Positions 1,274-47,612 of a stretch of DNA of 51,557 nucleotides are shown here, in pieces. A program made the translations under genes and the position numbers. The notes beneath the pieces are model-generated. The model saw only the letters and a program-made list of their open reading frames with translations, had not been told where the DNA came from and did no database searches. Origin of the DNA: Candidatus Woesearchaeota archaeon CG10_big_fil_rev_8_21_14_0_10_36_11 (GTDB lineage Archaea; Nanobdellota; Nanobdellia; Woesearchaeales; GW2011-AR9); the NCBI GenBank assembly GCA_002762845.1, contig PCYB01000066.1, forward strand, positions 1-51,557, written 5' to 3'. Positions within the stretch are counted from its first letter, which is position 1. Each line of letters starts with the position of its first letter.

Positions 1274-1286
1274 AAACCAGTGAAAA

Positions 1287-30954: not shown

Positions 30955-32484
30955 ATGATTGATACAACAGCAATAAGGCAACAATTTCCATATTTACAGA
31001 GGTCACTTCAGATGGATGTGCGCAATCCGCGGACCGATACACCGCGCCATTTTATGGATAGTACCGCTTCGACACATTTACCTCTTCCAGTTCTTGAAAG
31101 AATTGCACAAAGTCTTTTCAGTTATGCCAATGTTCACCGAGGCGAATATGACGCATCAATGGCAACAACAGAAGAGTTTGAAAGGTCATATAATATTGCT
31201 GCAAACTTAGTTAATGCTCGTTCTTGGCGGGAAATAATTTTTGGAAGAAATGCAACAGACATGATTAATCTTGTACGGCGTGGAATGGAACGTCAAGTTC
31301 GCTCAGGAGATAATATAGTTGTTACTGCCCTTGAACATAATTCTAATTATGTTCCATGGGTCGAACTTAAAGCAACGTTAGCAGATTTTGGTCGAGAGGT
31401 AGACATTCGAATAGTTCCATTTGATCTTAAAACGGGAGAACTTAACATGTCTGAATTGAAACATCTTGTTGACAAGAGAACAAAATTGGTTGCTGTTACA
31501 GGTGCATCAAACTTTATGGGAGTCAAACCAGACGTTGCAACAATTGGTGAGATTGCACATGCAAGTGGATATGTACAACCAGACGGTTTTCAGGGGTCAT
31601 ACTTATTAGTTGATGGGGCACAACTTGTTCCAGGAAGTCCTGTCGATGTTCAGAATCTTGACTGTGATTTTTTAGCATGGTCATTTCATAAAATGGCATT
31701 ACCTTTGGGTGTTGGTGGTTTATGGGCTCGAAAAGAAGCAATTCAACATTTTGATCCTTACATATCTGGTGGGGATATGATTTTAGATGTTACACCAGAC
31801 GCTATTGAGTTTCAAGATTTACCTTGGAAATATACTGCAGGAACACCAAACATCTTAGGAGTTATAGGGACTGGATTTGGTATAGAATTTCTTATTTCCA
31901 TGGCTTTGGGCAATTTGTCTGAACATGATGAGATTGAACGTACTGGAAAACGTATTGAAACAGAAATCCTTTTGAACACGCCACGGGGAGATTTTGAATA
32001 TAGTTTGTATAATGTTGAAGAAAGACATCCCGCTGAGGTCGAACTCTTTGGGAGATATGTTGAAAGACATCATGATGTAATGGCAACTCTTCAAAATCCC
32101 CAGAAACGATTAGAGAAAACAAAACACGTTGTACGAACAGCGATGGAAAAGATTCAATATCACGAGCAGGAACTTACACAACGTGCAATTGACGGTCTTG
32201 TAACTATACCTGGGATAACTTTGTATGGTCCTACTGATGCGACACAAAGAACCGGCCTTATTGCATTTAATCTTGCAGGTATAGAACCAATGGCACTTGC
32301 ATTTGCATTAAACAGAGAAGGTGTTGAGGTGCGAAACGGTGTTCACTGTGCATCTCTTGCACATCATTATTTGGGGATTAGAGAAACTGGAAGTGTCAGG
32401 ATGAGTGTCTACGTACCAACAACACAAGATGAAGTTACTGCTGCAGTAGATGCAGTTACTAGGATACAAAAAAGATTACATTAA
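30955..32484 (+). CDS. Class V aminotransferase / SufS-CsdA-like cysteine desulfurase with a ~85-aa insertion
   Basis: ANVHRG, TALEHNSNYVPW, LVDGAQ, DCDFLAWSFHKM (PLP lysine), YTAGTPN and VRNGVHCASLAHHY (catalytic Cys). An insertion lies between GIEFLISMALG and HEQELTQRA. Confidence 0.85.
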   Translation: MIDTTAIRQQFPYLQRSLQMDVRNPRTDTPRHFMDSTASTHLPLPVLERIAQSLFSYANVHRGEYDASMATTEEFERSYNIAANLVNARSWREIIFGRNATDMINLVRRGMERQVRSGDNIVVTALEHNSNYVPWVELKATLADFGREVDIRIVPFDLKTGELNMSELKHLVDKRTKLVAVTGASNFMGVKPDVATIGEIAHASGYVQPDGFQGSYLLVDGAQLVPGSPVDVQNLDCDFLAWSFHKMALPLGVGGLWARKEAIQHFDPYISGGDMILDVTPDAIEFQDLPWKYTAGTPNILGVIGTGFGIEFLISMALGNLSEHDEIERTGKRIETEILLNTPRGDFEYSLYNVEERHPAEVELFGRYVERHHDVMATLQNPQKRLEKTKHVVRTAMEKIQYHEQELTQRAIDGLVTIPGITLYGPTDATQRTGLIAFNLAGIEPMALAFALNREGVEVRNGVHCASLAHHYLGIRETGSVRMSVYVPTTQDEVTAAVDAVTRIQKRLH

Positions 32485-32525
32485 TTATGAAAAAAAAAGA
32501 TGGTTAGAGAGTGTGAAGAATAACA

Positions 32526-34586
32526 ATGACAAACAGAAAAATTATTGGGGCAACAACTGCAGTTGCTACTACGATTGATGCGGCTAGTGCACACCACATT
32601 GAAAAGTTACTTGCATTAGATGCAGTTATACAAAGACCCAAATCTTTAGAAGATGTTCGTTTCATGGGTGATTCTTTGATTGCATCATTCGGATTAAACA
32701 TGGACAATCCAACATTACCTCCAGATATAGATAAAGGATATGCCACTGCCGTTTCTTTTTTAGAACGTATTTGTTCTGTCTTTGAAGATCCAACACATGT
32801 TATTAGGATGGCTCCTTTTGCACATGCGTACCTTGGAACTCAAGGTTTTAACGATGCACTTGACGTTATTCTTGATCGGGCCGAGAAATTTCCTAATGAA
32901 CAACCAATGCTTGATACTATTTTTCCTGCAACAGCTTTAGTACAACCTTCATCTCGTGAAGAGTTTTTACTCAGTGTATTAGGATATGCTGCGGGAGAGT
33001 TAGAAGGCGATGAACTTCTCGGTTTGGGCTTCTTAATTAGTGATGCCAATCCAAATGTTACATTCACTGATCCTGGAGAATTTCCTTCAGAGTTTCCAAC
33101 AAGTGATGTACGTGATGCTGCCCATCGTATAGGAACATTTCTTGAATCAGGATTCTTTATTCCAGGTGTTGGATTTACTGATGTCTATAAAACATTCAAA
33201 GAAAAAATGGGTGGAGATATTGAGTATATGTTTAAAGAACCTTTACCAGAACATATAGTGGTTGTTTCTCCTAGTGAAGAGAAGTTTACATTTTTACAGG
33301 ATGATAATACTGTTGAGTGGACACCATCATATGACGCGCGGCCAAATACAACACATGAAAATCCTACAATTGTTATTGTGAATGATATTGTTCCTCTTGA
33401 TGCAGTGCGTTGTGTGTATCGTAATTCAACTATTGTGTATGTTGCAGGAAATAAACTTGCACGTGATGCAATGATGTCTGAACTTGGACCTAGCGCGCAA
33501 GAATTATTAATCGATACAACTGTTGTTAATGATAAAGGAGCAAAAAATCGTGTTGCAAATCACTTGAGGTATATTAGAACTCGGCGAGATAATTCTGGGC
33601 TGGTTGACTTTCGTGATATGTTAAATGCAGATATAAATGTAGCAGAAGATTTTGTTGCTCGAGGAAATGAACATTTCTTTGATTTCCGTAGCTCATTTGA
33701 AGAATTAGGGCGGGAAGGTCGTATTGATGCTATGGTTGAAGAAAAAGGATACACTGTTCCAATTAAAACAAATAATGATCTTGTTATGCTTCTTTCTCAT
33801 ACAGAAAGAGATTTAAACCCATTTTTTGAAAATGTAACACCAAAAACAGTTCGTGCATATTCAGGAATACCAGATATTACAAAAACAGGAATGCCTTTTG
33901 CTATCCTTACTAATATGTCTGTTCCTCATGCAGACATTATAGCAGCATATCCCTCTGCAACAGTTTTGTACGTTGCGCGAGATGACTCGGAAGAAACACG
34001 TATTATGAAAGCAAATCCCAATGGTGACATCTTTGTTGTTAACACTCAAAGTGTGGAAAGAGTTGCTGGTGGAGGTCGAAATCGTGCAGGATATGCCATT
34101 GTTGAAATGTTTTTTGAACAAATTGCAGCAGGAAGAACTGAAGGTGTCACTGTCATGTCTGCAATTACAAAAAGGATTTCAGCAGGGATTAAAAAAGAGA
34201 GAGATGATATACTTTTTAAAGAAAGTCTTCCGGGCTTTGCAGGAACGGCAGCATCATATTGGCGATTACAGGAAAAGTATCGTGCGACACCACTCGTTGC
34301 ACAATTAACGGATGGTGTTCTTATGGAAACATGTCCTACGGGCGGTTGTTTCAAACTTAATCAACCAGAACAAGGCGGATGTTGTGGTGGTGGGAACCTT
34401 CCTGGTGTTCTTATTGATTTTGCAATTGCGTACCGAAAACAAGTTGGTGATGAAAAGTTCATTGCAGAACTACAAACTTTTCATGGTGGGAACAGAACTG
34501 CGCCATGGTATCTTGATACGCGAGAGTACAAAAGAGTATTCCCTGGCGGCATTGAACCGAAAAAGAAAGGGCGGTTTACATTTTAA
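32526..34586 (+). CDS. Hypothetical 686-aa protein with an internal ~75-aa duplication and a Gly/Cys-rich C-terminal motif
   Basis: No recognisable family. Repeats: IVIVNDIVPLDAVRCVYRNSTIVYVAG versus FAILTNMSVPHADIIAAYPSATVLYVAR. Tail: CPTGGCFKLNQPEQGGCCGGGN. Confidence 0.7.
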   Translation: MTNRKIIGATTAVATTIDAASAHHIEKLLALDAVIQRPKSLEDVRFMGDSLIASFGLNMDNPTLPPDIDKGYATAVSFLERICSVFEDPTHVIRMAPFAHAYLGTQGFNDALDVILDRAEKFPNEQPMLDTIFPATALVQPSSREEFLLSVLGYAAGELEGDELLGLGFLISDANPNVTFTDPGEFPSEFPTSDVRDAAHRIGTFLESGFFIPGVGFTDVYKTFKEKMGGDIEYMFKEPLPEHIVVVSPSEEKFTFLQDDNTVEWTPSYDARPNTTHENPTIVIVNDIVPLDAVRCVYRNSTIVYVAGNKLARDAMMSELGPSAQELLIDTTVVNDKGAKNRVANHLRYIRTRRDNSGLVDFRDMLNADINVAEDFVARGNEHFFDFRSSFEELGREGRIDAMVEEKGYTVPIKTNNDLVMLLSHTERDLNPFFENVTPKTVRAYSGIPDITKTGMPFAILTNMSVPHADIIAAYPSATVLYVARDDSEETRIMKANPNGDIFVVNTQSVERVAGGGRNRAGYAIVEMFFEQIAAGRTEGVTVMSAITKRISAGIKKERDDILFKESLPGFAGTAASYWRLQEKYRATPLVAQLTDGVLMETCPTGGCFKLNQPEQGGCCGGGNLPGVLIDFAIAYRKQVGDEKFIAELQTFHGGNRTAPWYLDTREYKRVFPGGIEPKKKGRFTF

Positions 34587-34618
34587 ATTAAACAAATAAA
34601 GACACACACAAACACACA

Positions 34619-35470: not shown

Positions 35471-35532
35471 AAAATGACCTGGAGAATAAAAAATAAGCAA
35501 CAAAAAAGCAATTGGATATTCATGTTCATTAT

Positions 35533-35552
35533 CGTGACGTTCTGACGTCACG
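35533..35552 (+). promoter_or_regulatory. GC-rich perfect hairpin containing the palindrome TGACGTCA
   Basis: CGTGACGT-TCTG-ACGTCACG forms an 8-bp stem with a 4-nt loop. It sits in the largest intergenic gap of the block (35471-35618). Confidence 0.4.
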
Positions 35553-35618
35553 GTATGATTAAAAAAAAAGTATGGTGGATGAAAAAGTTACAATAAACAA
35601 CACGAGGTAAAAATAAAA

Positions 35619-36272
35619 ATGGTAACAACAACAAGGCCATGTGGAGACACTCGGCCAGAAGATAGAAAAGATGAAAAAACAGTTGAAGAGCAGAAATATA
35701 CCGTTGGAAATTTAGATCCAAATTTTCACGTTATTCTTGCACTGTTTCCTGGATGTGTTCAGGGTGGTCGAGTAGCAGTTGCAACGCGGGGAGACGATAG
35801 GCACGTTCTTTTAGACGGAACAGCTCAACAAATTGTTGAATATGGTGTAGGAAAGCAAGTAACTATCGAGGGTGTAAAATATTCTCGAAACGTTAGTGCA
35901 AGAGCGCAACCTGCAGTTGACGGTATCATTGCTGAAATGACGGGAACTGGCGAAGTTGCAAAACTCATTGAAGAAACTGGTAAAAAGACAGGGAAAGGTG
36001 CTCAGTTTGGTGGGTACACTGTTACAGTTCATGCAAAAGCTGCCGATGGTACTGAAGTAAAAGAACGTGTTACTTTAGGTTCTAAAGTAAATCAGTACTT
36101 CCGTCCAGATAGTGTTCTGAAAGATGATGTTAAAAGGGAGTTCCTCGGCGGAGTAGAACTGATGGTATCTGCAATCATCATACCTGGAAGTTCCAATGAC
36201 AAAAATGTTTTAGGAACTGAAAGCACTTCTAGCTATTGTGCAAAGGGTACCATTGACTACAAACTAGCATGA
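35619..36272 (+). CDS. Hypothetical 217-aa protein; candidate ubiquitin-like modifier precursor (speculative)
   Basis: Intact ORF with GAGG 13 nt upstream. Internal ...VKREFLGG (GG at nt 36147-36152) is followed by a 39-aa tail. The stop overlaps the next start (ATGA). Confidence 0.6.
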   Translation: MVTTTRPCGDTRPEDRKDEKTVEEQKYTVGNLDPNFHVILALFPGCVQGGRVAVATRGDDRHVLLDGTAQQIVEYGVGKQVTIEGVKYSRNVSARAQPAVDGIIAEMTGTGEVAKLIEETGKKTGKGAQFGGYTVTVHAKAADGTEVKERVTLGSKVNQYFRPDSVLKDDVKREFLGGVELMVSAIIIPGSSNDKNVLGTESTSSYCAKGTIDYKLA

Positions 36273-37735
36273 AAACATTAACAACGTTTTTGGAAAGGAT
36301 AGCTGAGAGGGGGCTTTCTTTTGTATTGCATGGAAGTCGTCTTTACGATTTCGTCGATACCGAGAAGTATCCGGATAATGTTCGTGTTGGCGGTTTTCAT
36401 CAATCATTAGTTCCCTCACTTTCTTTTTCTCATCTTGAACGTTTTGATGTTGATATGCAAGTAAGACCAATTCATACTCACTGTACCGGATATGTGAAAG
36501 ATACTGTCAATGCAGAACTGAAAGCAGAAGAAGAGTTACTCTCAGAAAAAGGGCGGATACACACTTTAGAATTTATCATGTATGAATTGTTACCTTTAAT
36601 CGTGAGCAAGAAATACGGTGCTGATAGTAGCATTTACCACGACGAAATTAATGCTGCTCTTGATGACTTAGAAGGGGGTACAGGAAAAACTTCTGGTGTT
36701 GAAATACAACAGGATAGATTTGTTCAAACAGCAAAAGAAGAGATACGAGCACAACTCGCACAGGATTTTGGAACTGACGATACGGTGGAAGAAAATCCAA
36801 GTGAACGATTACGTGCCATCGTATTGCAAAGAGAAAAACAATCTCTTAGTCGTGATCCTTTAGTTCCATTGTTATATACTCCCGAAGAAATTGGTATAGT
36901 TGAAGATGGTATTTCTTCATCACTGTTTGGAGAAATAACAGGTAACCAAGCATTATATGTTATTAATGGAAATGTCTTTCAGTTAGTGATACGAGACCAA
37001 CATGATGATGGTGCAGATAGTGTTGACAGTGAACTTGTTTTTACTGTTAACGGAAGGGAGTACGTTCCTGGTAAGAAAGTTACTGACATAGCAACACTTT
37101 CTTCAGAATATAAACAGCGCCGGGTAAAATTATGGCGTATTGCTGCCCTTGAAAAGAGTAAAGATGCGTTTGATATCATTAGAAATATAGTGAGAGAAGA
37201 TGGAGTAACACAAAGGCAAATGCATGAACTTGCAAAAAGAGAAGAGTATGATATTTCAGGTAGTGGTTTTATTTTAAGAGAAGGACACTATTATGTATAC
37301 ACAACAGTAAACAAATTTGCAACTCAAGATGGACGAAATGGTGATGTATTTTGGCCATTTCCTACAACACGTGTTGCTATTCAAGTTGGATCCAATGGTG
37401 GTGTACATTACGTTACTAGAGAAGTTTACGTTGTAGAACAGCGAGAACATCACCCCTGTATTCGTGAGAGAATGAGGCCTAGTGGATTTGGTTCATTATG
37501 TAACCTTAAAGATAGCAATTATGGAAAAACGCCCGCAGAGATGGTCCGTAGACTAAATGCTGGCGTAAATGTTGTTAGAGAGCCACTTAATCAAATCAGT
37601 CTTGATAAACATCCCGGGTACACATATTTTTATGTACATCTTGATGATATTTTAACTCAAGGTTCTTTGACACGTGCTGATGCAAGAGCACAGGGATATG
37701 ATGTTATTGAGGTGTTAGAAAAAAAAGTGACATAA
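36269..37735 (+). CDS. Hypothetical 488-aa protein; C-terminal region with UBC/E2-like motif pattern (speculative)
   Basis: The C-terminal ~150 aa show predicted-strand-like runs followed by EHHPCIRERMRPSGFGSLCNLKD and then a helix-like TPAEMVRRLNAGV. This resembles the HPN...Cys layout of E2 enzymes. Confidence 0.6.
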   Translation: MKTLTTFLERIAERGLSFVLHGSRLYDFVDTEKYPDNVRVGGFHQSLVPSLSFSHLERFDVDMQVRPIHTHCTGYVKDTVNAELKAEEELLSEKGRIHTLEFIMYELLPLIVSKKYGADSSIYHDEINAALDDLEGGTGKTSGVEIQQDRFVQTAKEEIRAQLAQDFGTDDTVEENPSERLRAIVLQREKQSLSRDPLVPLLYTPEEIGIVEDGISSSLFGEITGNQALYVINGNVFQLVIRDQHDDGADSVDSELVFTVNGREYVPGKKVTDIATLSSEYKQRRVKLWRIAALEKSKDAFDIIRNIVREDGVTQRQMHELAKREEYDISGSGFILREGHYYVYTTVNKFATQDGRNGDVFWPFPTTRVAIQVGSNGGVHYVTREVYVVEQREHHPCIRERMRPSGFGSLCNLKDSNYGKTPAEMVRRLNAGVNVVREPLNQISLDKHPGYTYFYVHLDDILTQGSLTRADARAQGYDVIEVLEKKVT

Positions 37736-37800
37736 AAAAACAGTATTGTATTACAATACAATACAACAATACAAAAAATAAATAAGAAAGGAATGATACA

Positions 37801-39744
37801 ATGACAACACATGACAACTCTGGAAATGATATAGGACCAATAAATGCTACTGCTGCACTTACTCCAGCAACTACTACTACTACTGTTGGTTCTGCTGCCA
37901 CTCCCGTTACTTCTACTCCTTCCGCTGCTTCTGCAGGTACTCCTGTTACTCCTGTTACTGATTGTCCGACCGGAATATGCCCATTACCAACACCGCCTCG
38001 AGACGACGATGAGTTATTCGATCTTCTTGATGATGCCGCGGCAGAACAAAGTTTGAGTGCATACAAACTTGTTCCCAATCCTTTAATAATTAGTAAGAGA
38101 TGTTTGGCTTTAGGCCATATGATTGGCGAAATAACGCGAGATGTTGACGGCGAGGGAGTGGGAAAAGGAAAAGGTCGAAACTTAGAAGTTGGCGGTTTTT
38201 ATCTTATTGACGGTGGAGACGATACATTTACTTTATGCGATTTTATCGTTCCAAACGACCTTCCCGTATCGCAAGGAAATATTGTTGTTGCAGAGCAATT
38301 TCCTATGGCTGGACTTGAACTACGGACACACAACGAAACTCAAGGAACAGACCTACGTATGGCAGCAATGTTTCATATCCACCCTACACTTGTTGGTGGG
38401 TTAGCTCATAGTTCTGCAGACGATGCTGCTCTTACGAGTCTAGTTAATAAAATGAAGGGGGCGACAGAACGATCGTATCCAGAACCATTTAGACTTATAG
38501 ATCGGTTGGCTGATAAAGTAAAGGAATACACACCTGAGGGCCAGATTATCAAAGGCGATGCGTTCAAAGATGTTGTACAAAAATTTATATTTCCTAACGA
38601 TGGAGCGTTCTACGCATTGTTACAACATTTTGGATTTCATCCGGATAAAAAATATTTCCAGAAACAAGAATTTTTAGCTCGGCTCCTTGACACTGTTGAC
38701 ATTTCTCTTGAAGAACCAAGAGTTGTTCATTTCGCGGCAAGTTTTGTGTTTAATTATACTACAAATGGGCCTTTTGTTAAAATGGGTATTGGTGAACGTC
38801 GACTCTTTACGGGAGAAAAACCAATAGTGTACACATCAGATGTTCCTCTTCAAGTTATTGATTTGGGAGAACCAATGCCAACAGAAGCAGAAGTTGCACA
38901 ATTAGTACGTGAAAGGATACGCTTTCCACCTCGACCAAAAGTATTTACAAGAACTAGAAGTAAATCTGCAAGAGGCGGTGGTTCTAGTTTACCCACGGGA
39001 TATCCTCCCGATGCCACGAGTTATCAGTCTCATGGCGACACATGGAGACAACAATGGGGTCCAGTTCAACCCACTTCTCCTTGGCTACAAGGTCAAGGTG
39101 CCTCTAATGCGTCAGGCGGTCCAGTAACTCCAAAAAGACAAACTGACGATAAAGTTACAGATAAAAACTATCGTTTGACCGAGATTGCAGATTTGTTTAC
39201 ATTAGCTGCACATTCTTATGTTCTCGAATGGCGACACGATGACTGTAAGTTTTCTGAATACCTTGACGATGTATTAACTTCAATAGACCGTTTCTCTCTT
39301 CAACAAGGATATGGGGTTTCTACCATTTCTGGAGGTACGAGACAACCGTCGCCCGTTTTTGGTTTTCGTGAAGCTGTAAAATATACTGGTCCAATTAGTG
39401 ATGATCCTTTGAAAGAAGTATTTACGCCACGATTTGCTTTCTATCACGCGAGTGGAGTTGCCAAATGTATCTCTGCAGGACTTAAAGAAAATCCTGATGA
39501 TAATGCGACTATTCAGTTCATGTTTAGGTTTATTTATGGTAGTACAGACTCACGGAATACAGCCTTACAAAGATATGTTACACAAGTTGCAGGGGAATAT
39601 GTTCCTTTACCGCAAAGTTTAGAACAAATTGAACCTACTGCTCACGTGCTTGGCACTCAAGAATTGTCAGATTTAAGCCTTACAACAATATATAATGGTG
39701 CACTAGACGATTTAGGTGATTCAACGGATAAAAATGAAGAATAA
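37801..39744 (+). CDS. JAB/MPN+ (JAMM) metallopeptidase-domain protein with low-complexity N-terminus and long C-terminal extension
   Basis: NLEVGGFYLIDGG (conserved Glu) and about 60 aa later MFHIHPTLVGGLAHSSADD (HxH...SxxD). The N-terminal ~60 aa are Thr/Pro/Ala/Ser-rich. Confidence 0.75.
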   Translation: MTTHDNSGNDIGPINATAALTPATTTTTVGSAATPVTSTPSAASAGTPVTPVTDCPTGICPLPTPPRDDDELFDLLDDAAAEQSLSAYKLVPNPLIISKRCLALGHMIGEITRDVDGEGVGKGKGRNLEVGGFYLIDGGDDTFTLCDFIVPNDLPVSQGNIVVAEQFPMAGLELRTHNETQGTDLRMAAMFHIHPTLVGGLAHSSADDAALTSLVNKMKGATERSYPEPFRLIDRLADKVKEYTPEGQIIKGDAFKDVVQKFIFPNDGAFYALLQHFGFHPDKKYFQKQEFLARLLDTVDISLEEPRVVHFAASFVFNYTTNGPFVKMGIGERRLFTGEKPIVYTSDVPLQVIDLGEPMPTEAEVAQLVRERIRFPPRPKVFTRTRSKSARGGGSSLPTGYPPDATSYQSHGDTWRQQWGPVQPTSPWLQGQGASNASGGPVTPKRQTDDKVTDKNYRLTEIADLFTLAAHSYVLEWRHDDCKFSEYLDDVLTSIDRFSLQQGYGVSTISGGTRQPSPVFGFREAVKYTGPISDDPLKEVFTPRFAFYHASGVAKCISAGLKENPDDNATIQFMFRFIYGSTDSRNTALQRYVTQVAGEYVPLPQSLEQIEPTAHVLGTQELSDLSLTTIYNGALDDLGDSTDKNEE

Positions 39745-39786
39745 AAAACAAAAAAAAGAATAATAAGAAACAACAACATTACTACA

Positions 39787-41340
39787 ATGACAAACGCTGA
39801 CACTCTTGTAATCGAAGAAGAACGGTATGACAGACAGAAATTGCTCTGGGGTGATGCTGGTCAAGATAGACTTAAGAATGCACGAGTGTCCGTTATAGGA
39901 TTAGATTTTCAGGGAAAATACGTTGCACTTTGTCTTGCAGCTCTTGGTGTTGGTAATGTAGTTCTTATTGATGGCAAAAATACAATCGAAGAAGAGGAAC
40001 GTGGCACATTTATGGGTACTCCCGTTTCCCATGGTTCTCGAGCATTAGCATATGCAGAACTTCTTCGTCGTGTTAATCCTCAAATACGCGTTGAAGGATA
40101 TCCAACAGACTTAGTTTCACGAATTGATCAAGATACATTAACTGGTTCAACAGTTATTGTTGATGCAACAAATATGGTTACATCAAAAAGAAATGCAATC
40201 CTGTTTGGTCATGAACATCATATCCCTGTGTTAAGTACATCTTCCCAATGGGGATATACAAAACTTGTACGGTGCGATTCCGAATCTCATGATCTAGCAT
40301 ATCTTATGCCTATGTTTGAAGGAAATGAGCAGGACGAATTAATGGCATTACTTATGTGCGGTGTTACGACTGAAGAAGTTCGTAAACTTATCTTTAATGA
40401 TAAAGATATTCTGCAAAAACCAGTTAGATACCGGCTTGGCGACGGATATCGTTTTGGATTCCCGAAAGAAGGAGAAATGGCTCCTCGACCTGATGCGACT
40501 AAATACGCTGATCTTCGTGTTGCATTCCTTGGCGCAGGCGCTATTGGATGTTGGGGCGCGATTGCTGCAGCAAAAATGGGCATTGACCGTGTTGACGTGT
40601 TTGATTACGATACGTTTGATTCAACAAATATTAACAGACAGGTATTAGGTTTTGACGGTGTTGGAGAACTGAAAGCAGTTCATATTGCAAAAAAGATTGT
40701 GGAAATGAGTTTAGGGAGAACACACTCTGATGGATTTAACGTAAAGATTCTTCCTGGATTTGAAACAGAACGGGAATATGATGTTGTATTCGACTTTGTT
40801 GATAATCCTTACACTCGTGCATTGAACACTGCACACGCAATTTCACATAATATACCAATGATAAGTTCAGGAGCACTTCCATATAGTGCGCGGTCAATAA
40901 CACAAGTTGCTGGAAAGACATTCTGTCAAGATTGTCTTTATCAGATTTATGATCGGGGTAGACAGGATGAAATGATTCGACGTGCAAGTTGTGCAGCCAA
41001 TCCTGACCCCTCGGTTGTCATGAGTAATGCTGTTGCAGGTGCACTTGCTGTACTTGAAATTTTTACGTTAGTTGAACCTGAAAAGTATGGGGTACCGTTC
41101 AGCGGAGAAATTATGTACCGTTCATCTGCTCCAACGAGGTTTGGTGCGGAGGGACTAACGGGTGCATGTGATTGTTATTCCAATCCTGTTCCGCAATTGG
41201 AAATATCGGATGAAGATGTTGCAGCATTTGCTAATGCAATTCCTCACGTACTTACGGGAGGATTAGTAGAAACTGAAAGAAAAGAAGGGAGAGGATTAGA
41301 AAGAGGATTAGAAGTGCTTACTGTTGAGCAACCAGAATGA
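39787..41340 (+). CDS. Tandem ThiF/MoeB-type E1-like adenylyltransferase (degenerate N-terminal plus intact C-terminal adenylation domain)
   Basis: Repeat 1: VSVIGLDFQGKYVALCLAALGVGNVVLIDG ... IVDATNMVTSKRN (nucleotide loop degenerate). Repeat 2: VAFLGAGAIGCWGAIAAAKMGIDRVDVFDYDTFDSTNINRQ ... VFDFVDNPYTRALN. Cys motifs CQDC and CDC are also present. Confidence 0.8.
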   Translation: MTNADTLVIEEERYDRQKLLWGDAGQDRLKNARVSVIGLDFQGKYVALCLAALGVGNVVLIDGKNTIEEEERGTFMGTPVSHGSRALAYAELLRRVNPQIRVEGYPTDLVSRIDQDTLTGSTVIVDATNMVTSKRNAILFGHEHHIPVLSTSSQWGYTKLVRCDSESHDLAYLMPMFEGNEQDELMALLMCGVTTEEVRKLIFNDKDILQKPVRYRLGDGYRFGFPKEGEMAPRPDATKYADLRVAFLGAGAIGCWGAIAAAKMGIDRVDVFDYDTFDSTNINRQVLGFDGVGELKAVHIAKKIVEMSLGRTHSDGFNVKILPGFETEREYDVVFDFVDNPYTRALNTAHAISHNIPMISSGALPYSARSITQVAGKTFCQDCLYQIYDRGRQDEMIRRASCAANPDPSVVMSNAVAGALAVLEIFTLVEPEKYGVPFSGEIMYRSSAPTRFGAEGLTGACDCYSNPVPQLEISDEDVAAFANAIPHVLTGGLVETERKEGRGLERGLEVLTVEQPE

Positions 41341-41438
41341 AACTGTTAATGCCTCTAACAACCACAATAAAAAATTTCAAAAAATAAACACAATGTCCAA
41401 AAAAAATCACTTAACTATTCACATAAAAAATTAATACC

Positions 41439-44400
41439 ATGGCAGAAGAAATTATACAAATGTTAAAACTTAAAGAACAAGAAAGAACTAAAGAACTAGA
41501 AATACTTCCTATACTCGATATTCCTCCTGCACTTGATGACGATGACAGTTTTTTTGATGAAGATGACTTAGCAGATATGTTTAATCGCGCAAGTGAAACA
41601 AATCTTTTTGGTGAAGAAGAAGAGGTTGTTACTGTTGTCGCTCCTCCATATGATCCAGTTAAGAAAATAGCAGCTATTTTGGAACTGGATGATGGTCGTA
41701 CAAAAAGAGATCCAGTAACATTCAATCCTAATCCTGTTCGTAATATGGTTTTTAACGCGTTGACAAGGAATGTTCTTCCAACAACATTTAAGGGCAGTCC
41801 TTTGGATAGTGATGGGCCAGTTTCTGATTTAGCAAGCGGAATATTGGTAGCTGAAAGTGCACTACGCCATTTTTCTATAAAAGAAACTGTTGATGGTGCC
41901 AGTTCCGCAGAAGGATATTTCCAAGAGGTTTCATGGAATTTAGGTACGCGAATGCAAAGATTGTTAAATCTTGAACTTGAGACAATGGAAGAACTGGGAT
42001 TGACATTATTAGAACGAGCAGGGTATGCATTTAATGCTGCATCACTTCGATATATCGATCTAAAAACAGGAAGATTTTTCTCTCGCGAAAAAGTACTTGA
42101 TGACATAGAACAACTTACTCTTGTTACAAATCCTACATTTATGAAGCGTGTTGGAATATATTACAGTACTCTTGGAAAACGATATATAAATGCCAGAATA
42201 AAAAAGTTTGTTTCTCGTGAAAGTGCACGAGATATGTTAGAACTTGGCGGCTCCATTAGAATTGCATCAGAGCTTACACTTGAAGAATCTGTTCAAATAC
42301 ACGGTAGGAAAAGAGTTGTGGAAAGAACAGAAACGTATCAAGATGTATTCTTTGAAGGGTTTCATCCTGAGACTTCTATTGTCGCTGATACCGTTGCTCA
42401 TATTCTTACTGGATACGAAGACCGTTTACGCTACGTTACTTCCTTTGATGAACTTGCAGATTTAACAACACTTTGTCTTGGCATTGGTTTAGTTACTGAT
42501 GAAACAACTGCCCAAGCTTTACGTACCTATGCTCTTGATCATTCTGTTGATGCGAGAACACTACTTTTGCGAACGTTCGCTACTGTTGCACAGCAGGATG
42601 GTTTTTTTCAGGACATGAAAATTGATGATGTATTATCACGATACGAAATTGGTTTACACTCAAGAGCAACATATACAAAAAATATGGTCCGTGAACTGGA
42701 CGAGTTACGTGGAAGAACATTTAATTTTAACGTATTAGCAGAACAAATTGTGACACGGTTAGAAGAAGAAAAAGGAGTTGTCCTTTCACTTCCTTCAATT
42801 TACGGTGAAGACGATTTTGATAATTTTTGTACCAGAATTACCGACTTTAATGTCCCTCTGTATGAAATTGTTTCTGATGATACGTTCGGCGCTTTACGAG
42901 CACAGTACGGAAAGATTCAATATGAATTTGAACAAAGTGATGTTAGAGCAAAAAAAGCTCGTGATGCCGTTCCTGTGGGCCATTCCTCATTAGGAGAAAA
43001 AGTGTTACAACAATTACACAGAAAGTACGGGCTTGATGTGGAACAAAGACAATTTGAATCCTATGAAGTATATAAAGAACAATCTGCAGAATTAATACAA
43101 GTTGTAAGGGGAATAATTCAAAAAACATTGGATGATGTTGTTACAGTTATTCCAAAAAAGTTAGGCGTTGACGTTCGTGTTAAATCTCTTGGTCCTATAA
43201 AAAGAAGAATAAGATATCTTCACGGGGGAGAAATCCATGACGTGCCTATTGGAAGCACAGGTACAGTTACAGGAATAAGAAAAGAAGGAACTTACACTAC
43301 TATCTTTGTTGCATTTGACCATCGTACTCATCACACTGATTGGTATACAGATCCTAAAGAGTTAGAGATTATTGCTAGTGATACTATTCCTTCTGAATTA
43401 CGTGGCGTTCTTAAAGAATTTGACGGCGATACTGAACGTGCTGCTGCCAGTATTATTAGCTCACTTGAACAGGAGATTAATTATGTATATCGAGAACAAG
43501 AGTTTAGAAGAATTAATGATGAACATATTGCACAACAAAAAGTAATCGCTGCAAAAATGTCCACTCTCTTTTTTGATAATGGAAAAAGAGTTATGCGAAC
43601 ATTTAGGGCATTAGGAATTGGGGAGTACAAGTCTAGAGAAACCAACACTCATCGTGTTCCTTTGGGAACTATTGGGCTTCCTGAGAGATACACCGGCGAC
43701 GGTTTTTTTGATGTTACATTTCCAATTCGAGACAGAAGAGGAAAGATTCATATTGATGAAATGCAACTTTTACGAAAAGTAGATGTTTCACCACGGTCAA
43801 TGATCGGTGCCCGTGCTCAAATTACTCAAGAAACAAATGAGGGAGATTATAAACTGGGAAGTTGGGGTATAGTAACTGGCACAGATGGAATTTCCCTGAG
43901 AGTACAATTTAAACATATTGAAGGAAAAGAGACTCAAGACGATTTACCTTGTGTATGGATACGTAGTCGGTATCTTACACTTAAATATGACGATATTGAA
44001 TGGAGAAAAACAGTTAATAAAACAACAAACAATCTCTTTGACAGTATTGAACAGACTGTACGTGATGTCCAGCGTGAATATAAACAGGTACAAAATCGCA
44101 AACGTGAATTAGTTGAATTAGGAGTGTCTCACTTCCGTGCAATAGGTATTGAAGATACAATCATACATATTCTTTTTGAGGATTGTCTTACCAATGAGGA
44201 TTTTGTGACGTATGTAAATAATGGTCTTCTTTCATCAGAAAGTGTGTTCGACGAAATTGAGACTGAACTAGATAGTTTAGGCGGCGAAGAGGAATATAGT
44301 GGTTTAGCTACTAAAATTAAAACTCAAGTTCAAGAAAAGATGGGACTCATATGGAGCGATACAACAGAAATTACTGGCGAAGAAACATATCAAACATTTA

Positions 44401-45158
44401 AAGATACACTTGTTGAATCGATAGTACAGAGGGGGTATATTATTTCAAAAGAAGGTACTGCAATCCCTAAAACTATCAAAAAGAGAACTCCCGTTCTTTT
44501 TGTAAAGGGATATGATGGAATTCCGGAAGGATCTTTTGGAATATTTAAAGAGTGGTGTGAAGGTGTGGGAGGGAACAATGTTCATGTTGATGGAACAACG
44601 AATGGGAACAATTGTTGTATCCCTAAAAATTGCTTAGTAACTGATGTCGTTCCTCTATTTACTTTACGTGATAACATTGATGATCTTACAAAAGGTGCAT
44701 ACAAAAGAGGCGTTAAAGTACGGCTCAGGATGGACAGCCAGTATGCATATCAACATGCAGGTGTTGGAGTTCTTGAAGAAGATTTAGAAGGAGAGGATAC
44801 AGAATATTATGGAGATGTATGTTTTGAAGGCGGGTACGTTAATGCATACAGAATAAAAGATTTAGAACTTGTCAATCCTCAAGATGTGTTACAGGGAAAA
44901 CAATTGCAATTGTATCAAAAAGCAATGCAAGAAAGAGAAACAAGAAAAGAAGAAATCCGGCGTGGTGTTGAATCAATAATTCAGGAAATAGAACGGGAAC
45001 GTAATCAACGCTATCAGAAAGTGCACGACTTATCTGTTGCTGTCCGAGACGAGTTACGGTCGTTTGGAAAAACAGACACAGAGATATACGAAGTATTTGA
45101 ACAACACATTTCTGAAACTTCTTACTTAACATACCGAGGAATATTAGATGTTGCATAA
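41439..45158 (+). CDS. Hypothetical 1239-aa protein with acidic N-terminus and at least 5 repeated beta-barrel-like modules
   Basis: Intact ORF. Repeats fall at about nt 43221-43379, 43650-43784, 43809-43991, 44484-44648 and 44709-44876. No catalytic motif recognised. Confidence 0.75.
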   Translation: MAEEIIQMLKLKEQERTKELEILPILDIPPALDDDDSFFDEDDLADMFNRASETNLFGEEEEVVTVVAPPYDPVKKIAAILELDDGRTKRDPVTFNPNPVRNMVFNALTRNVLPTTFKGSPLDSDGPVSDLASGILVAESALRHFSIKETVDGASSAEGYFQEVSWNLGTRMQRLLNLELETMEELGLTLLERAGYAFNAASLRYIDLKTGRFFSREKVLDDIEQLTLVTNPTFMKRVGIYYSTLGKRYINARIKKFVSRESARDMLELGGSIRIASELTLEESVQIHGRKRVVERTETYQDVFFEGFHPETSIVADTVAHILTGYEDRLRYVTSFDELADLTTLCLGIGLVTDETTAQALRTYALDHSVDARTLLLRTFATVAQQDGFFQDMKIDDVLSRYEIGLHSRATYTKNMVRELDELRGRTFNFNVLAEQIVTRLEEEKGVVLSLPSIYGEDDFDNFCTRITDFNVPLYEIVSDDTFGALRAQYGKIQYEFEQSDVRAKKARDAVPVGHSSLGEKVLQQLHRKYGLDVEQRQFESYEVYKEQSAELIQVVRGIIQKTLDDVVTVIPKKLGVDVRVKSLGPIKRRIRYLHGGEIHDVPIGSTGTVTGIRKEGTYTTIFVAFDHRTHHTDWYTDPKELEIIASDTIPSELRGVLKEFDGDTERAAASIISSLEQEINYVYREQEFRRINDEHIAQQKVIAAKMSTLFFDNGKRVMRTFRALGIGEYKSRETNTHRVPLGTIGLPERYTGDGFFDVTFPIRDRRGKIHIDEMQLLRKVDVSPRSMIGARAQITQETNEGDYKLGSWGIVTGTDGISLRVQFKHIEGKETQDDLPCVWIRSRYLTLKYDDIEWRKTVNKTTNNLFDSIEQTVRDVQREYKQVQNRKRELVELGVSHFRAIGIEDTIIHILFEDCLTNEDFVTYVNNGLLSSESVFDEIETELDSLGGEEEYSGLATKIKTQVQEKMGLIWSDTTEITGEETYQTFKDTLVESIVQRGYIISKEGTAIPKTIKKRTPVLFVKGYDGIPEGSFGIFKEWCEGVGGNNVHVDGTTNGNNCCIPKNCLVTDVVPLFTLRDNIDDLTKGAYKRGVKVRLRMDSQYAYQHAGVGVLEEDLEGEDTEYYGDVCFEGGYVNAYRIKDLELVNPQDVLQGKQLQLYQKAMQERETRKEEIRRGVESIIQEIERERNQRYQKVHDLSVAVRDELRSFGKTDTEIYEVFEQHISETSYLTYRGILDVA

Positions 45159-45179
45159 TACTATAAGGTGAAATATTAA

Positions 45180-47612
45180 ATGACACAAAAAACTGTTATC
45201 TCAACGGCAACTAGCGTAAATCTCACAGAAAGTACTATTCCTAACACTCCTCCTGATATCTTTGCACCATTACTAAAGACTGTGTACCAACTTGTAGCAC
45301 GGGATTATATTGATACCATTTTTTATTTATTAGGCGATACACCCTCTCGCGTACAGTTAGCTTCTCAAATTCCTAACATTCATACAGATGCAGACTTTGC
45401 CACTTTTTTATCTTCATTACCTTCGGCAACAGAACTTGCCGACATTGTAAAGCAAGACATTCGTGCTGAGTACGCAACGCTTGATACTGTTCTTGCAGAA
45501 AACGAAACACGACGTGCAACTGCATTGGCCGGTGCACAGATAGACTTTTCTGAATACGTTCCCGTATTACTTGAAGCAATAAATCGTCAATTACAAGTTT
45601 CACTTCCTTCTCCTAAAAGAGGTATAACTACCAAGGACGGTTTTGATACTTACCGAAGTACATTGGAAGGCCACGTATCTGATGCTATCACTGCAAAACT
45701 TACTTCTCCTTTTGGAAACGGTATGCGTATCGGCGATATTCTTACTGTAACGCGAATGTCAGGTCTTACTATTGACGATGATGGTGAGATGGCAGATGAG
45801 TTTCATTATGGTGGAAACCAAGACGATATTCCTCTTGGTCTTGAGGGCGAACTTGTCAATATCATTGGAAAAGATTCCGTTTTCGTTCGTTTTACTCGTG
45901 ATGGCGACGTAAAAGAATGGCAATTTTATCCCGACGAAATTACAAGTACTGGCAGAAATACGTACCAGGAATATCTTACCAAATTTGGTGGCGATGTAGG
46001 CCAAGCAGCCTCAACAGTTATTGCTACTGCTGAATTTCGTCTTATTTCTGAATATCTTCAAAGAGCACAAGAACGAGTTAATAACGTATTTGATGCAAAT
46101 GTTAGTTACATTTCAGATAGTATCCGAAGACGGTTTGCTCTTACCGACGATCAACTTACTGCCCTTGTTGCTGGTGATGACTTTGAGTACACCATTGACG
46201 ATGTAAAAGAAGGCGGACAAGTTGTCATTCCATTTGAAAGGTTGGCAGTCTTAGCATATCGGGCTTTAACTCACAAACTTGGTAAAGACACGAAACGTCC
46301 AAATCAGAGAATTGTAAGCGAAGCCGATTTTAGGCGTTTTATATCTGATTCAGCAATAAAATTGCGTGCAGGTGAAGATACATTCGATTTAGTTAAAGAA
46401 CAAATGAAAACTCTTGCAGTTTTACTCGAAAAAGAATATAGTGTTGTTGGCAGAAGGATGGTCCAGGAGAGTAAAGAAACACAACTAGGACGGGTTTTAG
46501 ATTTAGCAATTGAATCTTGGATTGATAGAGAACATCAAAGTGGTTGTTTAGGCGTCAAATATTCGTTTGATAGGGCATTATTGTACAATGATAGAAAAGT
46601 ATACACTGCTGAACCTTTCTCACCGCCATCAGAGGAGCTACATAGAGTTATCAAACTAGAAATGGGAAATGGTTGTAGTTATGCTAAATGCACGTATTGT
46701 ACAGAATATGGGCAGGCACGTTTCTTTTTACGGTCTCCTGACGACTTTAAAGATCATGTGCAGGAAGTAAAAAGAAAATTAGGAAGAGACATTAAGAATG
46801 TTGAAAGAGTATTTTTGGCTGGAGGGAGTATCCTATCTATTCCAACTAAAATACTTATTCAATATGTTGATATTGCCAGGAAGGCATTTCATAATCAACG
46901 AACAGATGGAGACAGAACGTATATTAGACGAATTGCTGCGTTTACGCGAACAGAAGGGCTAGCACGGAAGTCAGTACAAGAATTGGACGAACTGGTTAGT
47001 CATGGACTTAATATGGTTTTCTGGGGTATTGAAACGGGCGCTGATTCTGTTTTACAGTATGTTAACAAGGGAATTACTCACGACGAAATGATTGCTGCCG
47101 GATCAAAAATGCCACATACTCGAATGGAAGTTTCAACGATGGTAATGACTGGTCTTGGTGGACTTAAACATTATGAGAATCATGTTGTTCAAACTGCTAA
47201 ATTATTAAATGCTCTTCAGCCGCGATATATAACGTTTATGACGATAAATGCTCAACCTCATTCAATGTATGCTCATATCATGGCAGGAGAACAGGCTCGG
47301 GGAGAAAATATGCCCCTTACACCAGAGATGGTAGTCGAACAAATGTATGATATCGTGAGTCTTATTGACCCAAGATTATGGTCTGGTCGTCGTTGTTTAG
47401 TCGCTGCGTATCAATTACCTGTAGAACGAATTGCTGAAAATCCTGTACAATTTCGTGGCAGGTTAGAATATAATGACAAAACTACAATTTTGAGAGGGTT
47501 ACAAGATTACTTTACACGTGGTAGGACACCCAGTGAACTTGTTCCTGTAGCAGAATTTAATCAGAAAAGTCCTTTGAGAAGAATGGTGGTGGGAGACACT
47601 CCGATTGAATAA
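45180..47612 (+). CDS. Radical SAM enzyme with ~480-aa N-terminal extension paralogous to the preceding giant protein
   Basis: GNGCSYAKCTYCTEYG (CX4CX2C, nt 46674-46700), VFLAGGSIL, and FWGIETGADSVLQYVNKG. The N-terminal region carries a barrel-like module and the FGGDVGQAAS segment shared with 41439..45158. Confidence 0.75.
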   Translation: MTQKTVISTATSVNLTESTIPNTPPDIFAPLLKTVYQLVARDYIDTIFYLLGDTPSRVQLASQIPNIHTDADFATFLSSLPSATELADIVKQDIRAEYATLDTVLAENETRRATALAGAQIDFSEYVPVLLEAINRQLQVSLPSPKRGITTKDGFDTYRSTLEGHVSDAITAKLTSPFGNGMRIGDILTVTRMSGLTIDDDGEMADEFHYGGNQDDIPLGLEGELVNIIGKDSVFVRFTRDGDVKEWQFYPDEITSTGRNTYQEYLTKFGGDVGQAASTVIATAEFRLISEYLQRAQERVNNVFDANVSYISDSIRRRFALTDDQLTALVAGDDFEYTIDDVKEGGQVVIPFERLAVLAYRALTHKLGKDTKRPNQRIVSEADFRRFISDSAIKLRAGEDTFDLVKEQMKTLAVLLEKEYSVVGRRMVQESKETQLGRVLDLAIESWIDREHQSGCLGVKYSFDRALLYNDRKVYTAEPFSPPSEELHRVIKLEMGNGCSYAKCTYCTEYGQARFFLRSPDDFKDHVQEVKRKLGRDIKNVERVFLAGGSILSIPTKILIQYVDIARKAFHNQRTDGDRTYIRRIAAFTRTEGLARKSVQELDELVSHGLNMVFWGIETGADSVLQYVNKGITHDEMIAAGSKMPHTRMEVSTMVMTGLGGLKHYENHVVQTAKLLNALQPRYITFMTINAQPHSMYAHIMAGEQARGENMPLTPEMVVEQMYDIVSLIDPRLWSGRRCLVAAYQLPVERIAENPVQFRGRLEYNDKTTILRGLQDYFTRGRTPSELVPVAEFNQKSPLRRMVVGDTPIE

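Follow-up and report, generated by a model that had tools for sequence, protein, structure and literature searches.

Does an archaeon possess an enzyme of the E1 type, which activates ubiquitin-like proteins (Ubls), in which a dead and a live adenylation domain are fused in a single chain, and if so, with which partners does it act? E1s built in this way long counted as a eukaryotic hallmark and have recently been found in the bacterial Bil defence systems. The question is raised by an open reading frame (ORF) at positions 39787 to 41340 of the forward strand of contig PCYB01000066.1 from Candidatus Woesearchaeota archaeon CG10_big_fil_rev_8_21_14_0_10_36_11; the whole stretch of 51,557 nucleotides that was analysed is called the window below. 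An earlier note on this DNA had described the ORF as a single-chain E1 of eukaryote-like pseudo-heterodimer architecture, with a degenerate and an intact adenylation domain. We assign a probability of about 0.75 to the reading that the protein is an intramolecular pseudo-heterodimer that acts with a Ubl encoded in its own operon. That the operon supplies a complete Ubl-conjugation cascade seems to us a little better than an even bet. The features of the gene on which the first reading rests are the following.

39787..41340, forward strand: E1-like Ubl-activating enzyme of 517 aa with fused inactive and active adenylation domains (Pfam ThiF, AlphaFold2, Foldseek)
39787..40464, forward strand: inactive adenylation domain (IAD), aa 1-226 (ThiF 3.7e-16 when searched alone; MoeB 1.2e-21 by profile)
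39832..39834, forward strand: codon of Arg16 (motif RYDRQ; corresponds to MoeB R14), a putative Arg finger reaching from the IAD into the active site of the second domain
40465..41196, forward strand: active adenylation domain (AAD), aa 227-470 (ThiF 1.9e-25)
40531..40548, forward strand: nucleotide loop GAGAIG of the AAD, aa 249-254
40924..40935, forward strand: CQDC, aa 380-383, where the crossover loop begins; first half of a predicted four-Cys zinc site (aligns with MoeB C172/C175)
40990..40992, forward strand: codon of Cys402, the candidate catalytic (thioester-forming) Cys on the short crossover loop (aligns with MoeB C187)
41167..41175, forward strand: CDC, aa 461-463, second half of the predicted zinc site
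41197..41256, forward strand: conserved C-terminal helix P-x-L-E-I-S-x-x-D-V-x-x-F (family consensus; the model has helices at aa 475-484 and 486-489)

The 517-aa protein matches Pfam ThiF (PF00899) over two stretches at 2.1e-42 (145.4 bits, against a cut-off of 28.1). Searched alone, aa 1-226 score 59.4 bits (3.7e-16) and aa 227-517 score 89.9 bits (1.9e-25). Because each half matches ThiF separately and well above the cut-off, the two-repeat architecture is no chance pattern, and the two ThiF/MoeB-like repeats that the earlier note had read from the letters are both real. A BLASTP comparison of the two halves with each other detected no similarity (E 0.69), and a recent internal duplication is unlikely because each half is nearer to MoeB than to the other half. 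The motifs lie at aa 38-43 (GLDFQG) in the first repeat and at aa 249-254 (GAGAIG), 273-275 (DYD), 279-285 (STNINRQ), 338-344 (VDNPYTR), 380-383 (CQDC) and 461-463 (CDC) in the second.

For a comparison of individual residues we used 21 family members, consisting of orthologues that are 54-64% identical and of distant members at 26-38%. Their N halves and C halves were aligned jointly with residues 10-227 of E. coli MoeB, taken from the PDB alignment. By MoeB residue, the two halves compare as follows.

Nucleotide loop G38/G40/G43: C half G249 in 21/21, G251 in 21/21 and G254 in 19/21; N half Gly at the first position in 21/21, Asp (12) or Gly (8) at the central one, and Gly at the third in 16/21
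D62/D64: C half D273 and D275 in 21/21; N half first Asp in 17/21, second position variable
N70/R73/Q74: C half N281, R284 and Q285 in 21/21; N half 0/21
K86: C half K296 in 21/21; N half Arg in 14/21, Lys in 5/21
Mg-binding D130: C half D339 in 21/21; N half Asn in 20/21 (Asn129 here), Asp in 0/21
Zinc ligands C172/C175: C half C380 in 20/21 and C383 in 17/21; N half essentially absent (one sequence with Cys at each)
Crossover-loop C187: C half C402 in 21/21; N half absent
N-terminal R14 in RYxRQ: C half absent; N half Arg16 in 21/21

A complete ATP/Mg site, with GxGxxG, the ribose Asp, NxxRQ, the Lys and the Mg-binding Asp, is thus found in the C half only. A wider survey of 87 loci (52 archaeal and 35 bacterial) returned the same pattern. 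Nine AAD residues (G249, G251, D273, D275, N281, R284, Q285, K296 and D339) are kept in 87/87 loci, with G254 in 86 and R344 in 83 of them, and Arg16 is retained in all full-length sequences. At the Mg-binding position of the N half, an Asp occurs in one of the 52 archaeal sequences and in none of the 35 bacterial ones. Judged by these residues, the N half would be an inactive and the C half an active adenylation domain, exactly the pattern of the eukaryotic E1s and of BilD, the E1 of the Bil systems. The details that the earlier note had given for the two repeats are borne out: the first has the loop GLDFQG and lacks NxxRQ, the second has GAGAIG, DxD, STNINRQ and VDNPYTR with its ATP/Mg residues intact. 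The note had also named an outcome that would have spoken against it, namely ATP-binding residues complete in both halves; the second half alone keeps them.

The residue that could carry the activated Ubl lies in the C half. Cys402 is invariant in 87/87 loci and is aligned with MoeB C187, so that the crossover-loop catalytic Cys for which the note had proposed to look has a candidate here. In nearly all of the 87 loci, 20-23 residues separate the first Cys of the CxxC from Cys402, and therefore no catalytic-Cys domain (CYS or SCCH) is inserted in the crossover loop. The note's suggestion that CQDC and CDC bind zinc agrees with the prediction of a four-Cys zinc site in the C half, where CQDC is aligned with MoeB C172/C175. 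C380 is present in 47 of the 52 archaeal loci; CDC is nearly invariant in the family from DPANN archaea and absent in the bacterial relatives. Neither Pfam nor NCBIfam detected a rhodanese domain in the protein.

An AlphaFold2 model built on the alignment of 21 sequences has a mean pLDDT of 85.4 and a pTM of 0.87. The earlier note had made its proposal depend on whether the first half models as a ThiF-type Rossmann domain; it does, and blocks of ten residues in the N domain (aa 21-220) average about 86-98 in pLDDT. The crossover segment, aa 381-410, has lower values of 60-74 and is modelled with a single helix (aa 384-400); the low confidence is as expected of a mobile loop. After the CDC motif come about 25 conserved residues, which form two short helices, and then a disordered tail of about 27 residues with a pLDDT below 50 from aa 491 onwards. 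Neither the model nor the family consensus has a ubiquitin-fold domain after the CDC motif. The conserved C-terminal helix occupies the place of that domain in canonical E1s and is possibly an element to which partners dock.

A Foldseek search of the PDB with this model gave as the top matches Uba1 of S. pombe and of yeast, and human UBA7 and UBA6, with E-values of 1e-19 to 1e-16. The superpositions cover both domains, with query-normalised TM-scores of 0.56-0.62 over about 580-630 columns and an identity of 13-16%. Sequence searches of the PDB lead from the N half to NAE1/APPBP1, SAE1 and the inactive domain of UBA7, and from the C half to SAE2/UBA2, Uba4 and MoeB and also to UBA6 and Uba1. 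A family profile of the N half ranks the PDB entries in a different way: E. coli MoeB (1.2e-21), Uba4 (9e-20) and ThiF (4e-18) come before the inactive domain of UBA7 (3.5e-16), SAE1 (1.5e-13) and NAE1 (2.8e-12). Since the N half is by sequence nearest to active homodimeric enzymes, a duplication in common with the eukaryotic E1s does not follow from these results. To go by the sequences, the architecture is eukaryote-like and nothing ties its duplication to the eukaryotic event.

With what does this enzyme act? The genes around it suggest an answer. We surveyed the context at 7 loci found through a protein index and at 79 from species-representative genomes, using hidden Markov models made from the neighbours in the window. 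In the window the core operon consists of the E1 gene and the following genes.

35619..36272, forward strand: candidate Ubl precursor of 217 aa, with Gly190 (codon 36186-36188) followed by a 27-aa tail
36269..37735, forward strand: candidate E2-like Cys protein of 488 aa, with H395/P396 and Cys411 (codon 37499-37501) in its C-terminal domain
37801..39744, forward strand: JAMM/MPN+ metallopeptidase of 647 aa with a long C-terminal extension; HxH..S..D at nucleotides 38374-38421
41439..45158, forward strand: large fast-evolving protein of 1239 aa

The order Ubl candidate, E2-like protein, JAMM, E1 is kept in about 35 loci of DPANN archaea (Woese-, Pace-, Nano- and Aenigmatarchaeota), and the Ubl-candidate gene always comes first. 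The genes run in the same direction and almost without gaps (-4 to 98 nt in the window). Across these loci the Ubl candidate measures 110-250 aa and the E2-like protein about 450-570 aa, the latter sometimes being duplicated; in the closer loci a protein of 820-1240 aa is encoded directly 3' of E1. PADLOC returned no match for the operon neighbours of the E1.

Of these assignments, that of the JAMM peptidase is as solid as that of the E1. In 7 orthologues E129, H192, H194, S204 and D207 never vary, which completes the zinc site E...HxH...S..D. Pfam Prok-JAB is reached by two of the seven members, at best with 3.5e-10, and the family profile leads to the deubiquitinases BRCC36 (6.3e-05), the Rpn11-like protein of Caldiarchaeum and CSN5. 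In the closest Woesearchaeal loci the protein is 570-740 aa long. Near its N-terminus (aa ~55-60), nine close JAMM sequences, eight of them distinct (L006 and L019 are the same), carry a C-x2-G-x-C element, which is CPTGIC in the window, has the form CP[TD]GxC in six and reads CVGGSC or CQNGSC in the rest. The element resembles CPTGGC in a 686-aa protein encoded upstream of the operon, and the two could share a metal-binding, docking or sulfur-relay element.

The "E2" and "Ubl" identities are well-motivated hypotheses that draw on motifs and gene context. An exhaustive search placed the E2-like family at 168 clusters at 50% identity. Across 124 representatives no column but that of Cys411 is invariant, and H395/P396 reach a conservation of at least 90%; HP followed by Cys is, at the level of the motif, the order of the HPN...Cys signature in E2s of the UBC fold. 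For aa ~299-474 a long helix, a beta-meander, HP, a Cys loop and three to four helices are predicted, an arrangement that in the model fits the UBC topology. There is a precedent for an E2 that its sequence does not reveal: that of the type II Bil systems could not be recognised in this way either and at first bore the name CEHH (PMC10557695, PMC11601596). The AlphaFold2 model of the E2-like protein also contains three similar units of a beta-meander plus helix (aa 18-88, 229-296 and 326-437). These units are possibly repeats of a UBC/RWD-like module, with the Cys on the last only, and three loci (L004, L027 and L037) have tandem paralogues, two per locus. In the 27 orthologues of the Ubl candidate, Gly190 is the only invariant column. 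It closes a hydrophobic strand (..VSA.I.PG, or ..SAVQQGG in distant members) and is followed by a non-conserved tail of 1-27 aa.

The same partners recur outside the archaea. From about rank 41 of the genome scan onwards, two-domain E1 relatives with 22-30% identity come from Desulfobacterota, Chloroflexota and Acidobacteriota. They keep Arg16, the ATP/Mg residues of the AAD (R344 in 31/35) and Cys402, and are mostly without the zinc cysteines. In Desulfoferrobacter suflitae DRH4 (L067, 7932-13148) the E1 gene is followed by genes for a 124-aa protein ending in ...PQEGG-MFK, a 371-aa E2-like protein (KHPFL...QEIC), a 158-aa protein, a ClpX-like AAA+ ATPase and a 266-aa JAMM protein. A second locus (L058, 4913-9236) has a fragmentary E2-like ORF with a masked stretch, an AAA+ ATPase and a JAMM gene upstream of E1. 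No described family matched this bacterial operon type. The trio of E1, E2-like protein and JAMM co-occurs in archaea and bacteria. Of the evidence from gene context, this association in two domains of life speaks most strongly for a joint action of the three proteins.

The chemical steps and the target can be proposed from these residues and from better known systems. The dead N-terminal domain (aa 1-226) would serve as a structural partner, as the second subunit does in the MoeB and ThiF homodimers, and would supply Arg16 in cis to the single active site of aa 227-470. By analogy with BilC and BilA, the JAMM peptidase may trim the variable tail of the precursor encoded at 35619-36272 and so expose Gly190. 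The AAD, in which the necessary residues are present, would then bind ATP-Mg and adenylate Gly190, and Cys402 on the short flexible crossover loop would attack the adenylate to give an E1~Ubl thioester, a role suggested by its invariance and its alignment with MoeB C187. From there the Ubl might pass to Cys411 of the E2-like protein and on to lysines of targets; of all the steps this is the least certain. The JAMM peptidase may also reverse the conjugation. The large 1239-aa protein, whose orthologues are 21-27% identical compared with 54-64% for E1, and which has weak SH3-like matches only, is a candidate for a target, an adaptor, a specificity factor or an E3-like protein.

Several results weigh against this proposal, and most of them concern the Ubl and the E2. 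A beta-grasp similarity of the Ubl candidate was not found by profile against PDB, by Pfam on the 27 members or by hhalign against Ub, NEDD8, SUMO, Urm1, MoaD and ThiS. The closest subgroup has a Pro, and not a Gly, before the presumed reactive Gly, whereas distant members have Gly-Gly and a tail. The E2-like family matches nothing in Pfam (91 of the 168 clusters scanned), PDB (a profile of 124 sequences) or NCBIfam. Its AlphaFold2 model is weak, with a pLDDT of 69.6 on an alignment of five sequences, and returned no Foldseek match at E<=0.001. When hhalign was used to compare the family with five eukaryotic E2s, the result was not significant (E 0.076 in local mode); the alignment pairs HPC with HPN and Cys with Cys, and in the greedy setting extends over 134 collinear columns of a 147-residue E2, with an E-value of 0.025 that is not significant either. 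In both cases the probability is at most 2%. BilD, which we compared by its published description only, is absent from the 50 top structural and the 60 top sequence matches listed for the E1. A further point comes from the genes flanking the operon in the closest Woesearchaeal subgroup, which in the window are these.

30955..32484, forward strand: SufS-family cysteine-desulfurase-like enzyme of 509 aa, dependent on pyridoxal phosphate, at the head of the extended cluster (Pfam Aminotran_5 2.6e-91)
32526..34586, forward strand: 686-aa protein with a CP[TS]GGC motif, between the desulfurase and the Ubl gene, closest subgroup
45180..47612, forward strand: radical-SAM protein of 810 aa, closest Woesearchaeal subgroup only (Pfam Radical_SAM 1.5e-09)

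The conservation of a SufS-like desulfurase and a radical-SAM gene beside the operon fits a role as a sulfur carrier, at least as an additional one. The 509-aa protein matches the SufS family of NCBIfam at 1.9e-99, under the curated cut-off. Its gene and that of the 686-aa protein lie 5' of the core in the window and in nine more loci from the closest subgroup; among these nine, L002 and L018 are one and the same contig. Proteins of the 686-aa type are 650-700 aa long and have CPTGGC in nine of ten copies and CPSGGC in one, usually with GGCC next; Pfam and NCBIfam gave no family match. Radical-SAM orthologues of about 800 aa occur in six further loci, in one or two copies 3' of the core. None of these three kinds of gene occurs in the more distant DPANN loci or in the bacterial relatives.

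One could therefore suppose that the small protein is a sulfur carrier and not a tag. The E1 would adenylate it, and a persulfide from the SufS-like enzyme, relayed possibly through Cys402 or through the Cys-rich 686-aa and ~480-aa proteins, would convert the adenylate to a thiocarboxylate for thiolation or for a biosynthesis that involves the radical-SAM enzyme. The JAMM peptidase would merely mature the carrier, as QbsD matures QbsE and Mec+ matures CysO. The desulfurase and the 686-aa protein upstream of the Ubl gene and the radical-SAM genes downstream favour this explanation, as do the alignment of Cys402 with the crossover-loop Cys of MoeB and ThiF and a pattern of the ThiS/MoaD type (..VNG.. 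..GG) in the candidate, which is a matter of pattern recognition only. Archaeal SAMPs and Urm1, moreover, double as carriers and protein modifiers. However, the distant DPANN loci and the bacterial loci keep Ubl, E2-like protein, JAMM and E1 without the sulfur-related neighbours, the E1 is without a rhodanese domain, and E1s with an inactive and an active domain are described for conjugating systems only in the literature that we compared. An E2-like protein with an invariant Cys and large variable proteins also have no role in known sulfur-carrier pathways. On balance we consider a pure sulfur-carrier function unlikely.

Two other explanations appear far less probable still. Enzymes of the ThiF type also act in secondary metabolism and RNA modification, and MccB, PaaA and TcdA are among the PDB sequence matches. 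An enzyme of this style would adenylate the carboxylate of a peptide or nucleoside, with neighbours that are unrelated or resemble a cluster for a ribosomally synthesized and post-translationally modified peptide (RiPP). The variable C-terminal tail of the small protein would fit this explanation, and B12/radical-SAM enzymes are common in RiPP clusters. The matches to MccB, PaaA and TcdA are, however, weaker than those to MoeB, Uba4 and the E1s, and the top structural matches are true E1s over both domains. An intact JAMM related to deubiquitinases adjoins the E1, the small protein has an invariant Gly and a discarded tail and no modified core peptide, and the radical-SAM genes are outside the conserved core. 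It is just as improbable that the N-terminal repeat is a second nucleotide site, weakly active or regulatory, which would give the enzyme two functional sites. The unusual nearness of the N half to active enzymes (MoeB 1.2e-21), the GxGxxG-like loop of the members with a central Gly (8/21) and the Lys86 equivalent in 5/21 would fit such a site; the absence of the N70, R73 and Q74 equivalents from all 21 members does not, nor does that of the Mg-binding Asp (0/21, with 1/52 and 0/35 in the wider archaeal and bacterial sets), and the C half has no Arg finger with which to complement it.

The preferred reading, a pseudo-heterodimeric E1 that activates the operon's own Ubl, can be compared with the systems already described. 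The nearest parallel is Bil. The antiviral BilABCD operons have the order Ubl-E2-deubiquitinase-E1 with an E1 of the IAD-AAD form (Chambers et al. preprint, PMC10557695; Ye et al. preprint, PMC11601596). In type I and II the E1, BilD, is an IAD-AAD-CYS enzyme whose active site is completed by an Arg of the IAD (BilD Arg9), and in type II the Ubl, BilA, has a conserved Gly and a variable tail that its JAMM partner BilC removes (PMC10557695, PMC11601596). The likeness to bacterial conjugation systems which the earlier note had pointed out is therefore apt. The Woesearchaeal E1 shares with BilD the IAD-AAD core, an Arg in the IAD (Arg16 appears to correspond to Arg9 by role), a predicted four-Cys zinc site that is split between the crossover loop and the C-terminus, and the lack of both the FCCH and the ubiquitin-fold domain. 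The order Ubl, E2, JAMM, E1 would likewise be shared if the Ubl and E2 candidates, named by motif and position, are what they seem, and the Ubl candidate resembles the tailed precursor in its conserved Gly and variable tail. Unlike BilD, the archaeal enzyme has no helical CYS domain of ~80 aa, and Cys402 sits on a plain crossover loop. Its IAD scores directly as ThiF, whereas the corresponding BilD region was earlier annotated as the Prok-E2 family C domain. The E2-like protein (~480 aa, in no known family) and the JAMM peptidase (647 aa) are much larger than their Bil counterparts, a fifth large gene is conserved downstream, and the hosts are DPANN archaea. PADLOC and NCBIfam gave no Bil-type match to the operon proteins, although the presence of Bil models in these libraries was not established.

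The claim of a eukaryote-like pseudo-heterodimer is supported for the core of the enzyme. With the eukaryotic E1s (Uba1, UBA6 and UBA7; NAE1-UBA3 and SAE1-SAE2) the archaeal enzyme has in common the IAD-AAD core, a single active site and a putative Arg finger of the IAD, and the single-chain E1s are its best Foldseek matches. A zinc site, according to the Bil literature, is a feature of the SUMO and NEDD8 E1s as well. The likeness does not extend to the whole chain: it has 517 aa compared with about 1000, the FCCH, SCCH (CYS), four-helix bundle and ubiquitin-fold domains are all lacking, and the candidate catalytic Cys is placed on the crossover loop. In this last respect the enzyme is closer to the group of MoeB, ThiF, UbaA, Uba4 and UBA5, with which it shares the sequence and fold of the adenylation domain and a zinc site of the CxxC...CxxC type. 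Enzymes of the MoeB/UBA5 group, too, have no separate CYS domain (review, PMC11354881), and the Cys that acts in catalysis or as a persulfide lies in them on a short crossover loop. The members of that group are symmetric homodimers with two active sites, whereas in the present enzyme the partner domain is part of the same chain and has been inactivated, and a JAMM peptidase and an E2-like Cys protein are encoded nearby.

Other archaeal and bacterial systems differ more. Caldiarchaeum- and Asgard-type E1s have a single adenylation domain. Their catalytic Cys is housed in a domain of ~60 aa (PMC11354881). They resemble the system described here in that an archaeal operon combines the E1-like enzyme with a Ubl, an E2 and an Rpn11-like JAMM (Hennell James et al. 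2017, PMC5654768; PMC11354881), but their clusters include a RING E3 and an E2 that can be recognised as of the UBC type, and in the Woesearchaeal operon neither was detected. The Bub operons provide Ubl, E2-like, JAMM and E1 functions in prokaryotes, and BubCD is among the profile matches (4.5e-14); BubCD, however, is a homodimeric JAMM-E1 fusion that has no catalytic Cys and works through Tyr/Ser oxyester intermediates, unlike the Woesearchaeal E1 with its invariant Cys and its IAD (PMC11601596). In the sulfur-carrier systems, in which ThiS, MoaD or QbsE acts with ThiF, MoeB or QbsC, the carrier ends in Gly-Gly and the E1 has a rhodanese or persulfide donor as a fused domain or as a partner. 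The candidate in the window has Pro-Gly and a tail, its distant relatives have Gly-Gly and a tail, and a desulfurase adjoins the operon in the closest subgroup only. The PADLOC matches of the E1 to Cap2, the E1-E2 fusion of the CBASS defence systems, cover only the adenylation domain of Cap2 (aa ~230-400), and the chain has no E2 domain; we therefore rejected an assignment to Cap2.

The earlier note had placed the protein on an AT-rich archaeal contig and had seen in this a bearing on the origin of the E1 architecture. The GC content of 32-40% agrees with such a contig, as does a database protein that is 100% identical and comes from Candidatus Woesearchaeota archaeon CG10_big_fil_rev, a tiny symbiotic archaeon of the DPANN group. 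The family occurs in several DPANN lineages but is not exclusively archaeal, given the relatives from Desulfobacterota, Chloroflexota and Acidobacteriota at 22-30% identity. The family thus widens the host range of the IAD-AAD form to DPANN archaea and further bacterial phyla. Since this form exists without a catalytic-Cys domain, the step in which an adenylation domain was duplicated and inactivated is separable from the insertion of a mobile Cys domain, and the order of events in E1 evolution thereby becomes testable by phylogeny and biochemistry. Tentatively, and at somewhat less than even odds, we propose that DPANN archaea and related Desulfobacterota and Chloroflexota carry an undescribed, complete Ubl conjugation system. 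It would combine a minimal canonical E1 with a new E2-like family of 168 clusters that has no Pfam entry, and the coupling to desulfurase and radical-SAM genes in Woesearchaea suggests a dual role as sulfur carrier and modifier like that of Urm1 and the SAMPs. As part of the same tentative proposal, an IAD-AAD core with a crossover-loop Cys, and without CYS or ubiquitin-fold domain, would be the expected intermediate between MoeB-like homodimers and the E1s of Bil systems and eukaryotes. We found no description of the DPANN system in the literature searched, which did not extend to subscription journals, so that an earlier account is possible.

A sizeable unannotated family with an E2-like HP...Cys signature accompanies the E1 and the JAMM peptidase, and the related system of the cultured D. 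suflitae DRH4 is a possible experimental entry point. Because the nine-gene cluster of ~17 kb (30955-47612) is a large investment for genomes of ~1 Mb, it probably has an important function, be it in host interaction, defence, proteostasis or sulfur chemistry. No defence genes were recognised by PADLOC among the operon proteins and their nearest neighbours, or by Pfam among the other ORFs of the window. We considered and rejected a phage or mobile origin of the window: a phage collection gave no match by megablast or tblastn, relatives of the E1 are absent from the viral contigs of IMG/VR, and archaeal genes of the housekeeping type are present.

Some smaller observations concern the cluster and the genomes that carry it. 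A 283-aa ORF (34619-35470) between the gene for the 686-aa protein and the Ubl gene has no homologue in the other loci examined and no family match, and appears to be an insertion specific to the window genome. The second-best NCBIfam match of the SufS-like protein is the cargo desulfurase of family 2A encapsulins. Residues 451-694 of the large protein are homologous to residues 64-302 of the 810-aa radical-SAM protein (BLASTP 5e-07); the module that the two have in common includes the SH3-like GG..D.P.G..G.V, and the large protein has several barrel-like repeats. One of the loci with the same operon, L006, contains a full-length RpoD-like sigma-70 gene (294-1958, reverse strand; NCBIfam RpoD 2e-118, and 2e-101 for MzaA, an anti-phage-associated sigma factor). 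This gene first pointed to a bacterial contig, a reading that was rejected because the UMP kinase, SecDF and ValRS encoded on it are of the archaeal type; the sigma-70 gene seems to have come into a DPANN archaeon from bacteria. Many of the operon-bearing metagenome-assembled genomes that represent species in GTDB (L013, L016, L018, L019, L024, L037 and others) are titled "uncultured Methanosarcinales archaeon". These are binchicken or SRP co-assemblies, and gene content and E1 similarity suggest that the titles are placeholders or wrong labels.

According to Pfam, the window contains AglB/STT3, glycosyltransferase and radical-SAM genes, and no tRNA genes were found in it. One of these genes (19486-22944, reverse strand) encodes a protein of 1152 aa in which an STT3/AglB oligosaccharyltransferase is fused to a C-terminal peptidyl-prolyl isomerase of the PPIC type, an unusual combination.

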